A stretch of 64,000 bases of DNA, taken from NCBI GenBank assembly GCA_045612385.1, contig JAZKYZ010000064.1:196-64195 (forward strand), written 5' to 3'. Shown in pieces: positions 5,169 through 44,595 of this stretch. Below the pieces are notes generated by a model, which worked only from the letters and a program-made list of their open reading frames with translations, did not search any database and was not told the DNA's origin. How positions within the stretch are numbered: position 1 is the stretch's first letter; each line of letters starts with the position of its first letter. A program made the translations under genes and the position numbers. The stretch is from Eubacteriales bacterium. GTDB lineage: Bacteria; Bacillota; Clostridia; Oscillospirales; CAG-272.

Positions 5169-5936
5169 TTATTCCGTTACGATACTAATATTCAATGTGA
5201 GATTGCGAGAATAAAAAACGGGGTAAGCCAAAGAACCATTTTGGGCTTCAGTATTCCATACGACGAGATATATGTTTCCGTCAACAAAATCAGTGGCATC
5301 AATCTCAACACTTCCTGTAAACGTCGTAAAGTCGCCGACAGTGGGTGTGTGAGTAAAGACTTCGTGATGTTCTGCTCCGGAATTGTCGTAGCCCTTAAAA
5401 TACATACCGATTGGAGAAGCTGTCCATCCATTGCCTGTTTTTAAGTCAATGGTGTATTCTATTTTCATCTTACCGTCGAAGTTAGATTTGAGGGCTAATT
5501 TGAGTTCGTCGTTCAATTTGACAGTGGCAGTTCTTTGCCCACTGCTTCCTCCGTTTTCTGGCTCGTTACCAAAAACAGAAATTTCCTGCTTTAAGGTAGA
5601 TACATCGCTCCAACGAGCATATAATGTGGTGGGGAATGATTTTTCCCAATTCAGAAGAGATACTCCTTCTCCGTTAATATATTTTGTTCCACCTTCCTGT
5701 GCGTCGAAATATCCTTCAAGATAGTATCCTTTTTTTGGCGAAACGGTGATTGTTGCTTTCTTGCCATACTGCGCTACATATTGTGTAGAGGTTTCTCCGT
5801 CATAAAGTGTGAGTGTGGATTGCGTAAAACCTTCACCTACTTCGTTGTCATTTTCAAACAATCCACATCCTGTCATAAACGAGAATAAAAGACAAAGAGT
5901 GAAAGTTAAAATGATAGCTTTGATTCGTTTGTTCAT
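5169..5936 (-). CDS. Lipoprotein with one Listeria-Bacteroides (InlB B-type) repeat-like module
   Basis: Signal peptide plus lipobox FMTGC. GYYLEGYFDAQEGGTKY...LYARW resembles the repeat also seen in the giant protein at 20706-26201. Confidence 0.7.
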   Translation of the reverse strand: MNKRIKAIILTFTLCLLFSFMTGCGLFENDNEVGEGFTQSTLTLYDGETSTQYVAQYGKKATITVSPKKGYYLEGYFDAQEGGTKYINGEGVSLLNWEKSFPTTLYARWSDVSTLKQEISVFGNEPENGGSSGQRTATVKLNDELKLALKSNFDGKMKIEYTIDLKTGNGWTASPIGMYFKGYDNSGAEHHEVFTHTPTVGDFTTFTGSVEIDATDFVDGNIYLVVWNTEAQNGSLAYPVFYSRNLTLNISIVTE

Positions 5937-6034
5937 AGTACAATCTCCTTTTTTTGTTTTATAGTTGTTATATTTTGAATTTTATCACATTTACAGGGAT
6001 ATGTCAATACTTTAGGAAGTATATTCCAAAGTAA

Positions 6035-6346
6035 GGCGAATATACCTACACCCTGCGTCTAACAAGCAAGCTTGTCGAACTTCGGGTGGGGTATGCGAAC
6101 CTTCGCATACGTAAAACGTATGCAAGGTCGAATCTGGAGGGTAGACAAAAAAAGAGAAGCACCGTTTTGGTGCTTGACCGAAAGGGTTTTCGCCTGAGGC
6201 GAATATACCCACACCCTGCGTCTGACAAGCGAGCTTGTCGAACTTCGGGTGGGGTATGCGAACCTTCGCATACGTAAAACGTATGCAAGGTCGAATCTGG
6301 AGGGTAGACCAAAAAAGAGAGGCACCTATTTGGTGCCTCTCTTTTT
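6035..6346. repeat. Two tandem ~163-bp units immediately 3' of tRNA-Arg
   Basis: GGCGAATATACC...GGTATGCGAACCTTCGCATACGTAAAACGTATGCAAGGTCGAATCTGGAGGGTAGAC starts at 6035 and again at 6198. Each copy ends in an A-run plus a GCACC/GGTGC hairpin. Confidence 0.9.
6311..6346 (-). terminator. Intrinsic (bidirectional) terminator after tRNA-Arg
   Basis: AAAAAAGAGAGGCACC-TATTT-GGTGCCTCTCTTTTTT lies directly adjacent to the tRNA CCA end. Confidence 0.8.
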
Positions 6347-6423
6347 TGGCCTACCCGAAAGGATTCGAACCTTCGGCCTTCAGAGTCGGAGTCTGACGCG
6401 CTATCCAGCTGTGCCACGGGTAG
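6347..6423 (-). tRNA. tRNA-Arg (anticodon CCG)
   Basis: Hand-folded cloverleaf. Acceptor CTACCCG/CGGGTAG, anticodon stem TCAGA/TCTGA with loop CTCCGAC, T-arm GAAGG-TTCGAAT-CCTTT, encoded CCA. Confidence 0.85.
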
Positions 6424-6438
6424 ATGGAATGCTATAAT

Positions 6439-6467
6439 ATTCTAACATTATTTTCCTTGTTTGTCAA
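6439..6467 (-). promoter_or_regulatory. Sigma-A-type promoter of tRNA-Arg
   Basis: Minus strand reads TTGACA, 17 nt, TAGAAT, about 15 nt upstream of the tRNA 5' end. Confidence 0.6.
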
Positions 6468-6532
6468 GGTGAAAGAGATAAGGAATTTTGACTTTTTTTG
6501 TATATGTGGATATAATAAAGGTAGAAACCATT

Positions 6533-7195
6533 ATGAAAAAGGAAGGGCATTCGTTGAAAAAGACAAGGCTTTGGTTAAAAAATATTCTACTCACAATTTT
6601 CGGCACGCTTGTATTGTCTCTTGGAACGGCGCTATTCTTGTTGCCAAACCATCTGATTGCTGGTGGAATTTCAGGTTTGGCTATTCTCCTTGAGCATATT
6701 TTCAAATCCATTTCCGTAGAACGCTGGATTTCAATGTTGACCGTTGGGCTGTTTCTTCTTGGTCTGTTTTTACTAAAAAGTGATTTTGCTGTCAAAACAC
6801 TTCTTTCTACTATTATTTATCCTGTGGGTATTGCGCTATTTTCTCCGTTAAAAGAATGGGACGCGCTTGCTTCTTTTTTTGTTATCAGAGAGGAAAAGGA
6901 TATGATCTTGACGCTTTTGATTGCCTCCATATTGGGTGGTGTGTTCATTGGTGTCGGATGCGCAATCACCTTTCTTGGAGGGGGATCTACCGGAGGGGTA
7001 GATGTCATTGCTTTTCTTATCTGTAAACTTTTTCCAAGCCTGCGCGCGTCAAAGGTCATCTTCTTTGTCGATGCTACTATCATTCTCTTGGGAATCTTCA
7101 TCACATCCGATATAGTGAAATCTGTTTTTGGAATTCTATCTGCATTTGTTGGCGCAATTATGATTGAAAAAATATTTCTTTCTGCTAAAAAATGA
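6533..7195 (+). CDS. YitT-family membrane protein
   Basis: Multi-TM protein with GGISGLAILL and GGGSTGGVD motifs typical of YitT/DUF161. ATG at 6533 is preceded by TTGACT, 17 nt, TATAAT (6487-6515). Confidence 0.7.
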   Translation: MKKEGHSLKKTRLWLKNILLTIFGTLVLSLGTALFLLPNHLIAGGISGLAILLEHIFKSISVERWISMLTVGLFLLGLFLLKSDFAVKTLLSTIIYPVGIALFSPLKEWDALASFFVIREEKDMILTLLIASILGGVFIGVGCAITFLGGGSTGGVDVIAFLICKLFPSLRASKVIFFVDATIILLGIFITSDIVKSVFGILSAFVGAIMIEKIFLSAKK

Positions 7196-16103: not shown

Positions 16104-16376
16104 AGGTTTTCAAACATAAGAAACTGGTAAGTCATTATGTTAACAAAACGAACCCTTTACTTATCAATGTGCTCCATAGTGCATTTTACACAGTCGAAAT
16201 TTTCTAGTGCGTCCACACCGAAAGGGCTGATGATATACCAGTAAAAAAGTGCAACTTGTAAAAGGGTACTTCGGTCAGGCGATGATTAACAAGGCGCACG
16301 CCAACGGCAGCATTTGTAACGATTAGATTTTAAAACTGTCCTTTAGAGTATCTCCCTATAGGATACGACTTTTTTC

Positions 16377-16653
16377 GTGCGGACCATGTCGCTCGTTAAG
16401 AAAACAGTTGATAACTGTTTTTAGAGCGAAGACCGAGAACTATGTTCGAGGTCTGTCCCGTCGGAGCCCAAGCAAAAAGAGCACCACAAGGGTGTTTTTT
16501 AGTGCGGACGATGTCGCTCGTTAAGAAAACAGTTGATAACTGTTTTTAGTGCGAAGACCGAAGACTATGTATGAGGTCTGTCCCGTCGGAGCCCAAGCAA
16601 AAAGAGCACCACAAGGGTGCTCTTTAGTGCTTGGTGCGGACGACGGGACTTGA
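16377..16653. repeat. Two tandem 125-bp units plus a terminal 22-nt tRNA-Leu 3' fragment
   Basis: Units start at 16377 and 16502 with GTGCGGAC(C/G)ATG (tRNA-Leu 3'-end-like). Each ends with the AAAAAGAGCACC-ACAA-GGGTG hairpin. A third start at 16632 is the perfect tRNA 3' end copy. Confidence 0.9.
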
Positions 16654-26475: not shown

Positions 26476-26560
26476 TGGTGCGGACGACGGGACTTGAACC
26501 CACATGAATTGCTTCACTGGAACCTGAAACCAGCGCGTCTGCCAATTCCGCCACGTCCGC
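26476..26560 (-). tRNA. tRNA-Leu (anticodon CAG)
   Basis: Acceptor GCGGACG/CGTCCGC, anticodon loop TTCAGGT, long variable arm TGAA-GCAA-TTCA, T-loop TTCAAGT, encoded CCA. Confidence 0.85.
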
Positions 26561-44118: not shown

Positions 44119-44519
44119 GGTATGCGAACTCCTCGCCTACGGCGACGAAGTTCGTTCGATACAGGAGCACAAAAAAAAGAAGGACAACCACGAGGGTTGT
44201 CCGCTCCTGCGGAGTAGACGCTTCGCCTACGGCTACGCTATATACCTCGCTATGCGAGGTATGCGAACTCCTCGCCTACGGCGACGAAGTTCGTTCGATA
44301 CAGGAGCACAAAAAAAAGAAGGATGACCGTTCGGTCATCCTGCGAAACAAATGTTTCGCATATAACGGTACGTATTTTTTGGAGAAGACGCTTCGCCTAC
44401 GGCTACGCTATATACCTCGCTATGCGAGGTATGCGAACTCCTCGCCTACGGCGACGAAGTTCGTTCGATACAGGAGCACAAAAAAAGAAGGACAACCACG
44501 AGGGTTGTCCTTCTTTTTT
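44119..44519. repeat. Three tandem units (139- and 170-bp spacing) immediately 3' of tRNA-Lys
   Basis: GGTATGCGAACTCCTCGCCTACGGCGACGAAGTTCGTTCGATACAGGAGCAC plus an A-run plus a hairpin starts at 44119, 44258 and 44428. The first copy begins 1 nt after the fliB-like stop codon. Confidence 0.9.
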
Positions 44520-44595
44520 TGGTGCTCCTGCGGAGAATCGAACTCCGGACACCTTGATTAAAAGTCAAGTGCTCTACCAGCTGAGCTACAGGGGC
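44520..44595 (-). tRNA. tRNA-Lys (anticodon UUU)
   Basis: GCCCCTGTAGCTCAGCTGGTAGAGCACTTGACTTTTAATCAAGG...GGAGTTCGATTCTCCGCAGGAGCACCA. Canonical D and T arms. Confidence 0.9.

Follow-up and report, generated by a model that had tools for sequence, protein, structure and literature searches.

Tandem units behind a Clostridial tRNA-Arg(CCG) gene share the layout of the RtT repeats of Escherichia coli

The stretch of DNA analysed here, hereafter the window, comprises 64,000 nt of contig JAZKYZ010000064.1 (positions 196 to 64,195; assembly GCA_045612385.1) from a Eubacteriales bacterium of the CAG-272 lineage, and carries on its minus strand a tRNA-Arg(CCG) gene that is trailed by two tandem, non-coding units (Table 1). 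A previous interpretation of the letters alone (the sequence-only reading) had described these as 163-bp units, the second of them adjoining the CCA end of the tRNA, each with a terminator and with degenerate stretches from the 3′ end of tRNA-Arg in either orientation, and had seen in them a switch-like arrangement that no gene or known element type would explain. Tandem Repeats Finder (TRF) returned a period of 163 with 1.9 copies and 95% matches (6034-6336), in agreement with a repeat search that delimited two 140-nt copies (6034-6173 and 6197-6336) of 95% identity. Together with our palindrome and tRNA-piece measurements, these repeats establish that all direct observations of the sequence-only reading were correct.

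On the minus strand, starting from the CCA, the array runs through a terminator, an inverted copy of the tRNA 3′ end (S_rc), a hairpin that we term X, a direct copy of the 5′ strand of the T-stem with GGTTCG, a module that we term M, the 3′ half of the T-loop with the 3′ strand of the T-stem, and a copy of the terminator, whereupon the order repeats. In the general form of the unit, the 3′ strand of the T-stem continues into the acceptor after M and is followed by the next terminator; in unit 2, the acceptor part of the direct copy is deleted (AAAACCCTTTCGG..TCA, degenerate). The promoter of the next gene (6007-5979) lies beyond the distal end of the array.

Table 1. Features of the tRNA-Arg(CCG) array and of two further tRNA-associated arrays in the window.
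Feature	Position	Strand	Basis or remark
tRNA-Arg(CCG) promoter, TTGACA-17-TAGAAT	6467-6439	minus	promoter scan
tRNA-Arg(CCG) gene	6347..6423	minus	ARAGORN; Rfam tRNA, 58 bits
Terminator hairpin 1: A-run, GAGAGGCACC stem, 5-nt loop (6327-6331), T-run	6311..6346	minus	strong
Unit 2, S_rc: degenerate inverted copy of tRNA-Arg 3′ end; tRNA strand, TGGTCTACCCTCCAGATTCGACCTT	6287..6310	minus	alignment to reverse complement of tail
Unit 2, hairpin X: GCATACG-TAAAA-CGTATGC	6268..6286	minus	inverted-repeat search
Unit 2, direct copy of T-stem 5′ strand and 5′ half of T-loop; tRNA strand, CGAAGGTTCG	6259..6268	minus	repeat search
Unit 2, module M, 68 nt, at TTCG^AA of pseudo T-loop	6191..6258	minus	boundaries of between-locus identity
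Unit 2, 3′ half of pseudo T-loop and T-stem 3′ strand; tRNA strand, AAAACCCTTTCGG vs AATCCTTTCGGG in the tRNA	6178..6190	minus	direct repeat
Degenerate terminator copy between units 2 and 1: AGCACC-AAAAC-GGTGCT, T-run	6147..6177	minus	terminator scan
Unit 1: S_rc (6124-6146), hairpin X (6105-6123), T-stem 5′ strand with GGTTCG (6096-6105)	6096..6146	minus	repeat search
Unit 1, module M, ending early after the 5′ strand of P0 (..TATTCGCC / TTACTTTGG)	6035..6095	minus	distal array end
tRNA-Leu(CAG) displaced 3′ end (16632-16653, 22 nt), old terminator, 2 x 125-bp units with AAAACAGTTATCAACTGTTTT hairpin	16370..16653	minus	TRF
tRNA-Lys(UUU) array of the same build, short module CATACCTCGC-ATA-GCGAGGTAT..GCC-GTA-GGCGAAGCG	44119..44519	minus	three units

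Terminator hairpin 1 forms the centre of a palindrome (6302-6326 / 6332-6356) whose 25-nt arms are 96% complementary, enclose the 5-nt loop and take in the last 10 nt of tRNA-Arg(CCG), just as the sequence-only reading had it for a roughly 25-bp palindrome covering the acceptor strand. The degenerate terminator copy between the units is 80% complementary to terminator 1. Alignments and the repeat search likewise recovered the tRNA-derived pieces. The inverted copy TGGTCTACCCTCCAGATTCGACCTT is an imperfect reverse complement of the last 27 nt of the tRNA. The sequence AAGGTCGAATCTGGAGGGTAGAC is present twice (6124-6146 and 6287-6309), continuing with CCA in unit 2 only and with ACAA in unit 1, and against the reverse complement of the tRNA-Arg tail TGGTCTACCCTCCA-GATTCG-ACCTT aligned to TGGCCTACCCGAAAGGATTCGAACCTT. 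As to direct copies, CGAAGGTTCG of unit 2 is identical to the tRNA at 6366-6375, and CCGAAAGGGTT at the junction of the units corresponds to CCGAAAGGATT of the tRNA within a 24-nt direct repeat (71% identical).

Several comparisons bear on whether this similarity exceeds chance. Taken alone, the inverted copy at tRNA-Arg is a modest signal, scoring 13 with its own tail against a best of 12 with other tails (rank 1/40, z = 3.1), and the unit 2 piece AAAACCCTTTCGG scores 9 with its own tRNA and at most 6 with others (rank 1). For 17 of the 40 tRNA genes of the genome, an inverted copy of the gene's own tail ranks first within 120 nt downstream. Among 36 M copies from >20 genomes, 31 have a 3′ flank that, of all tRNA tails compared, is best matched by the T-stem 3′ strand and acceptor of the adjoining tRNA itself. 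Two units are present in a metagenome contig whose tRNA-Arg has an identical 3′ half, and both of their tRNA-derived pieces are perfect (TGGCCTACCCG and CCTTTCGGGTAG).

A point missed by the sequence-only reading is that the first 67 nt of each unit, i.e. M on the plus strand, are a dispersed module found throughout the genus. These 67 nt recur at ~17 places in the genome, and a search with the covariance model (CM) R1 yielded >20 M copies there, including those of unit 2 (6184-6264, 102 bits) and unit 1 (6019-6101, 69.5 bits). R1 detected M in 31 of 37 genomes of the genus (0 to 20 copies each). Beyond the genus, it was detected in 1 of 24 other families from the order and nowhere among 299 additional genomes of the class; viral contigs scanned with the conserved core of M contained no true copy. 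The pattern TTCGCC-N2-4-GGCGAAAACCC, when run against genome contigs, was too loose, with matches that amounted to chance in GC-rich genomes and a few in Clostridial ones that the model did not support. Structurally, M consists of a helix P1, conserved internal loops, a helix P2 with the apex GACAAGC-GA-GCTTGTC, and a hairpin P0, TTCGCC-TCA-GGCG(AA). Its length is fixed (74-76 nt with the T-loop halves), and it falls into several subfamilies whose stem sequences differ yet stay paired, double changes being found at 15 of the 19 predicted pairs.

In 40 loci, nearly all M copies lie downstream of a tRNA gene and on its strand, the CCA and the first unit being ~80-100 nt apart. The tRNAs concerned include those for Gln, Glu, Ser, Cys, Tyr, Pro, Met, Thr, Val, Leu and Arg among others, and the insertion point is always TTCG^A. 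At five loci of the genome (Arg, Leu, Tyr, Gln and Ser), M is 90-96% identical while the flanks are unrelated, with identity between loci starting exactly at GGTTCG/CAT and stopping at GGCG/AAAACC. Since M is thus discrete and near-identical between flanks that are specific to each locus, it appears to move, or to be copied, between T-loop-like sites. This burst of 90-96% identity is confined to this genome; among relatives, grouping M copies by genome or by tRNA revealed no clear pattern, every class showing 0.71-0.77 identity. Hairpin X is present in every unit, its sequence being unrelated from locus to locus. A mirror-image M was found at the 5′ end of tRNA-Ser, inside a reverse-complemented copy of the D-arm (CCACTTCG^ATACC).

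Two variants of these units were noticed in passing. Some M copies contain a nested insert of ~75 nt with conserved ends (GTAGCGAAGCGGYGCGAG ... CGAGCGTGACCGARCCGCAGYGAGAC; contig C39 of this genome, 46704-46824, and locus L164, 1250-1400), i.e. a second small hairpin cassette within the first. Another M unit lies behind a promoter-driven RNA with a tRNA-like 3′ end (..GGGTTCGATTCCCGTTGCGGGTGCCA) that ARAGORN did not call (contig C39, 46480-46560).

In related genomes, the unit appears as an insert of ~170-190 bp that has a direct repeat of the tRNA 3′ end on each side, and the distal one is often complete. At eight loci, one of them in this genome, the distal tRNA 3′ end is complete through the CCA and followed by a different terminator, and at six of these direct repeats of the tRNA 3′ end flank the insert, whereas in the window only a degenerate repeat is left. 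The distal, complete end looks like the gene's original end, displaced when an insert entered the T-loop region and supplied a new tRNA end and terminator. Two different M subtypes can share one array with nearly identical flanks, as seen at three loci including two contigs of this genome. Across the genus, tRNA-Arg(CCG) itself occurs in three states, namely without an array, with units of a short two-hairpin module, and with the long M, the last being found in this genome and in the metagenome contig. For tRNA-Gln, the inverted copy carries deviations (CTGCA(G/A)AAC(T/C)GCGGCTTCGA) that are common to two genomes, and some arrays must therefore be older than species. Exact-protein look-ups for four flanking genes returned no matches on record, and orthologues of the neighbouring lipoprotein (76-83% identity) sit in contigs that lack tRNA-Arg.

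This layout, which the sequence-only reading could not assign to any known element type, is that of the E. coli RtT repeats (RF00391), with which we compared it at tyrT/tyrV, proK and serX. Repeats of 178 bp behind E. coli tyrT have been known since the late 1970s, reportedly from work by Egan and Landy in 1978 and by Rossi and colleagues in 1981; to our knowledge, what makes RtT repeats and what they do is still unexplained. In K-12, RF00391 gave 16 matches at 6 tRNA loci. Besides the tyrT-tyrV operon, where its RNA is annotated as rttR, the repeat is found at proK, at serX and in the lys/val and arg/ser tRNA clusters. The K-12 unit at tyrT/tyrV, proK and serX consists of an inverted T-arm copy (GAGGATGAGAACCTCC at proK, GGGGGGATGAGAAGCCCC at serX), a loop, the 5′ strand of the T-stem with GGTTCGA, a hairpin module of ~65 nt, and ATCC followed by the neighbouring tRNA's T-stem 3′ strand, acceptor and CCA; a copy of the tRNA's terminator is included as well at proK and serX. 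Among 5426 complete E. coli genomes, proK is followed by 0, 1 or 2 whole units (e.g. the K-12 unit, NC_000913 3708448-3708581, and NZ_CP049353.1 177686-178018). Where proK has no whole unit, a truncated one persists directly next to a repetitive extragenic palindromic (REP) element, comparable to the truncated distal unit in the window.

Like RtT repeats, the Clostridial units lie directly 3′ of tRNAs of several specificities and on the tRNA strand, measure ~130-180 bp, are often tandem in arrays that end with a truncated unit, and have an inverted T-arm copy upstream of an interrupted T-arm, a hairpin module after GGTTCG(A), the 3′ end of the neighbouring tRNA itself, and Watson-Crick hairpins with 3-nt loops. 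They differ in the sequence of the module, which is unrelated; in the insertion point (TTCG^C... as opposed to TTCGA^C... in E. coli); in an inverted copy that runs through acceptor and CCA up to the terminator, so that the palindrome with 25-nt arms holds the real tRNA end; in the mirror version at the 5′ end of tRNA-Ser; and in their host, a genus of uncultured gut Clostridia. In line with the unrelated module, RF00391 had no match in the window at 5800-6700 (E <= 10), nor in eight related loci or the tRNA-Lys array (E <= 5), while the same search gave 4 matches of 133-138 bits at tyrT. By its model, the Clostridial units are thus outside that Rfam family. A literature search on repeats trailing tRNA genes found nothing specific. 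The tRNA-Arg units are a sequence-unrelated variant of the RtT kind of tRNA-trailing repeat that had been misread as a switch. As a family with this layout, and with a sequence of its own, fills the tRNA gene ends of a whole Clostridial genus, it is layout rather than sequence that defines the class.

We think that M, and the unit around it, acts as a DNA-level element and not as a regulatory RNA, since its helices are almost purely Watson-Crick, its loops are mostly 3 nt long, no promoter precedes it, and an intrinsic terminator stands in front of every unit. The missing promoters, the terminators and the lack of G-U pairs likewise leave an RNA regulatory reading in general unsupported. M helices comprise 1133 Watson-Crick, 16 G-T and 10 A-C pairs, compared to 403, 30 and 8, respectively, in the acceptor and T stems of this genome's tRNAs; at 1.3% vs 6.8% of pairs, G-U is five times rarer in M than in tRNA stems. 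As a strand test, G-T vs A-C counts in M (16 vs 10) gave no significant difference. Loops of 3 nt were found in 49 of 59 copies of P0 and in 29 of 50 of X, often as C-GAA-G, C-AAA-G or C-ATA-G; 3-nt loops of the C-GAA-G type are the pattern of stable DNA mini-hairpins, not of RNA tetraloops. Promoters of the sigma-70 type were not in excess upstream of M on either strand, and a promoter scan of the window placed none before M. When compared with shuffled sequences, the unit folded with z = -9.75 on the minus strand and z = -9.66 on the plus strand.

Overall, our confidence is about evenly balanced that the units are a DNA-level repeat family of one genus that trails tRNA genes and has an RtT-like build, in which M inserts at TTCG^A and arrays change by whole units; no candidate enzyme co-occurs with M. 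Each unit would be built from inverted and direct pseudo-copies of the last ~25-30 nt of the adjoining tRNA, with X between them, a terminator after them and M at TTCG^AA. As sharp identity boundaries and inserts bounded by direct repeats suggest, M would insert at the TTCG^A of such tRNA-end copies. Separately, arrays would grow or shrink by whole units through recombination between the repeated tRNA-end and terminator segments; whole-unit change is evident at the E. coli analogue, and in the window a duplication of this kind probably gave rise to the 95% identical pair. The insertion of M, or of the unit, might be catalysed by a host function that nearly every member of the genus possesses, or come about by template-switching at hairpins during replication, and any RNA from the units would be read-through from the tRNA gene. 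Both parts of the rule, insertion at TTCG^A and copy-number steps of whole units, are testable in E. coli by ordinary genetics.

Several points weigh against this account. No enzyme tracks the M family. The need of the insert for a tRNA-specific end bars simple hopping between tRNAs and leaves the origin of the locus-specific copies unexplained, and the identity between M copies could reflect gene conversion rather than transposition. No strain-level gain or loss was seen within the genus, which is represented by one genome per species and by syntenic contigs that lack the tRNA. Across species, M has kept its internal loops and apex, as would also fit an RNA or a host function. Finally, the RtT repeat at tyrT, a unit of the same layout, is reported to yield a stable processed RNA of 171 nt, rtT RNA, of unknown mode of action (Bosl and Kersten 1991, cited in both PMC3318445 and bioRxiv 10.1101/2024.07.17.603846).

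This E. coli precedent is also the starting point for an RNA-based explanation, which we consider possible but rather unlikely: a precursor reading through the terminator would be cut to a structured RNA of ~160 nt (anti-tRNA arm, X, interrupted T-arm and M) that would influence tRNA metabolism or the stringent response, or else capture the tRNA 3′ end as a decoy or sponge. Such an RNA would fit the conserved internal loops of M and its covarying stems, as well as a minus-strand fold far stabler than shuffles, and the sole non-Watson-Crick position of the palindrome is G-U on the tRNA strand and A-C on the other. However, a strong intrinsic terminator precedes each unit, promoter scans came back empty, G-U pairs are scarce and without strand bias, loops are mostly of 3 nt, the plus strand folds equally well, no Rfam family matches, and copy numbers of 0 to 20 across the genus are unlike those of a housekeeping RNA. 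Far more improbable, and contradicted by the family at large, is the attenuator or riboswitch-like switch of the sequence-only reading, in which each unit would regulate read-through behind the tRNA by two hairpins that exclude one another. The overlapping hairpins it rested on (GTATGCGAA-CC-TTCGCATAC and GCATACG-TAAAA-CGTATGC) do exist in both units, but such an alternative pairing was found in only 2 of 55 family members, both in the window, where it stems from local palindromy around the T-arm copy. There is, moreover, no in-phase downstream gene, the next gene has its own promoter, and we rejected a riboswitch or transcription attenuator also for want of an upstream promoter and an Rfam match.

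The units might instead be passive scars with neither an element nor a function behind them, left where highly transcribed tRNA genes have their terminator and T-arm hairpins, through break repair and through fold-back or template-switch errors of replication, with palindromes kept perfect by quasi-palindrome correction and homogenised by gene conversion. This would account for the alternation of direct, inverted and direct copies of one segment around hairpins, for a 'covariation' restricted to Watson-Crick pairs (as yielded by templated palindrome correction), for the lack of an enzyme and for the whole-unit shifts of copy number in E. coli. We nevertheless judge it distinctly unlikely: correction should erase the fixed length of M and the asymmetric loops and apex that are conserved across species at ~72% overall identity, M is 90-96% identical at five unrelated tRNA loci and always in the same T-loop position, and the family is confined to one genus although terminators and T-arms are universal. 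A more far-reaching idea, which we regard as speculative and on the whole unlikely, is that RtT-type units of E. coli and Clostridia could be a widespread, so far unrecognised class of protein-less mobile DNA that homes to tRNA T-loops. M and the inverted and direct copies would then fold as a rod of single-stranded DNA (ssDNA), rebuilding a duplex tRNA gene end, and a universal host recombinase or the replication machinery would insert the rod and thereby supply a new terminator and tRNA end. The tyrT repeats, now 45 years old, would in that case be the members of the class that were seen first.

The favoured account, a DNA-level repeat that inserts M at T-loops, invites comparison with other mobile DNA. 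Integrase islands with displaced tRNA or tmRNA ends and tandem accretion, e.g. the Dehalococcoides ssrA islands (PMC3146451), and integrative and cis-mobilizable elements (IME/CIME; reviewed in PMC5704250) served as the comparison set. Like these, the units are bounded by direct repeats of the tRNA 3′ end that start in the T-loop, have an older terminator after the distal repeat, and can stack as several inserts at one tRNA. Unlike them, the insert is only 125-190 bp long and non-coding, has no linked integrase, recurs as the same cassette at >12 tRNA species, and contains an extra inverted copy of the tRNA end. With REP sequences and bacterial interspersed mosaic elements (BIMEs), the palindromes of IS200/IS605 insertion sequences (ISs), attC sites and CTX-phage attP, the units share small non-coding hairpins whose structure is conserved above their sequence. 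Resemblance to structured ssDNA sites such as attC or folded attP extends to covariation confined to Watson-Crick pairs, to conserved unpaired bases, and to an inverted copy which, together with the direct one, could restore a duplex target if the unit were single-stranded. They are set apart from REP, IS605 and attC by the strict association with tRNA ends and by the lack of a REP-associated tyrosine transposase (RAYT) or Y1 transposase; integron or dif-like motifs were not recognised. As regards MITEs (miniature transposable elements with inverted repeats), the stems of M covary rather than being conserved, and a parent IS was not found. CG-N-ATACC flanks M on either side and might be a short duplication, though one indistinguishable from the T-loop halves.

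Candidate enzymes were sought by their domains. The IS200/IS605 Y1 (HUH) transposase (PF01797) occurs in 11 of 41 genomes, does not correlate with M, and is absent from most high-copy genomes, among them this genome and four others (G007, G010, G020 and G021) that have 14-20 M copies each. A reverse transcriptase (PF00078), as expected for a tRNA-primed retroelement, is found in 8 of the 41 genomes, again uncorrelated and absent from most high-copy genomes, and the IS110 DEDD recombinase (PF01548) of a bridge-RNA mini-element exceeded the cut-off in 1 of the 41. As for tyrosine recombinases, the six PF00589 genes of the genome lie elsewhere, two of them beside tRNAs without an array, and the C11/C49 integrase was found in this genome only. 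In a test for restriction avoidance, TTCGAA, the T-loop palindrome at which M sits, was observed 136 times in this genome where 435 were expected. Its ratio of 0.31 ranks sixth from the bottom among the 64 palindromic hexamers, but CTCGAG, ATCGAT and CAATTG have comparably low values.

Two further arrays in the window lie at tRNA ends. In the tRNA-Lys(UUU) array, the short module reads ACCTCGC-ATA-GCGAGGT, GCC-GTA-GGC and then GAAGCG, the GGCGAAGCG motif being present in the E. coli RtT module too, and R1 gave weak matches at 44217-44269 and 44387-44439. The displaced end of tRNA-Leu(CAG) represents the classical case of an integrated island, with an older array of the same style beyond it; as the intact gene (26476-26560) lies ~9.8 kb from the displaced end, the array seems to have been in place before the island entered the tRNA end. 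The hairpin motif AAAACAGTTATCAACTGTTTT of this older array, whose module differs from M, also occurs behind tRNA-Pro(UGG), tRNA-Lys(CUU) and tRNA-Cys in the genome.

A permissive Rfam search of the units, the related loci and the tRNA-Lys array returned only tRNA, hairpin artefacts of microRNA families, and weak matches of the arrays (window 44313-44523 and locus L211, 613-782) to MicX (RF01808, E = 0.009) and the Burkholderia family ncS011 (RF02867, E = 0.034). MicX and ncS011 may themselves be tRNA-trailing repeat units that were annotated as small RNAs. The microRNA matches at the palindrome (6301-6357) are spurious; their E-values reach down to 5.5e-06, and all are below gathering scores. 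In practice, assemblies break at tRNA genes because of these units, whose long hairpins also give rise to such microRNA-like matches.

Other families of hairpin repeats were encountered behind tRNA or tmRNA genes, both in this genome (contig C2, ~100-338, and contig C54, 26121-26400) and at three further loci. One of them consists of successive short hairpins with GATGAAATC or GATTTCATC at the end, and another uses GATGATATAC. Lastly, the motif ACTTTTTCACT(A/C)TTCACTCTTCACT and its inverse AGTGAATAGTGAA flank terminator copies behind tRNA-Arg and tRNA-Gln at seven loci in relatives, and make up a further repeat type at the same tRNA sites.

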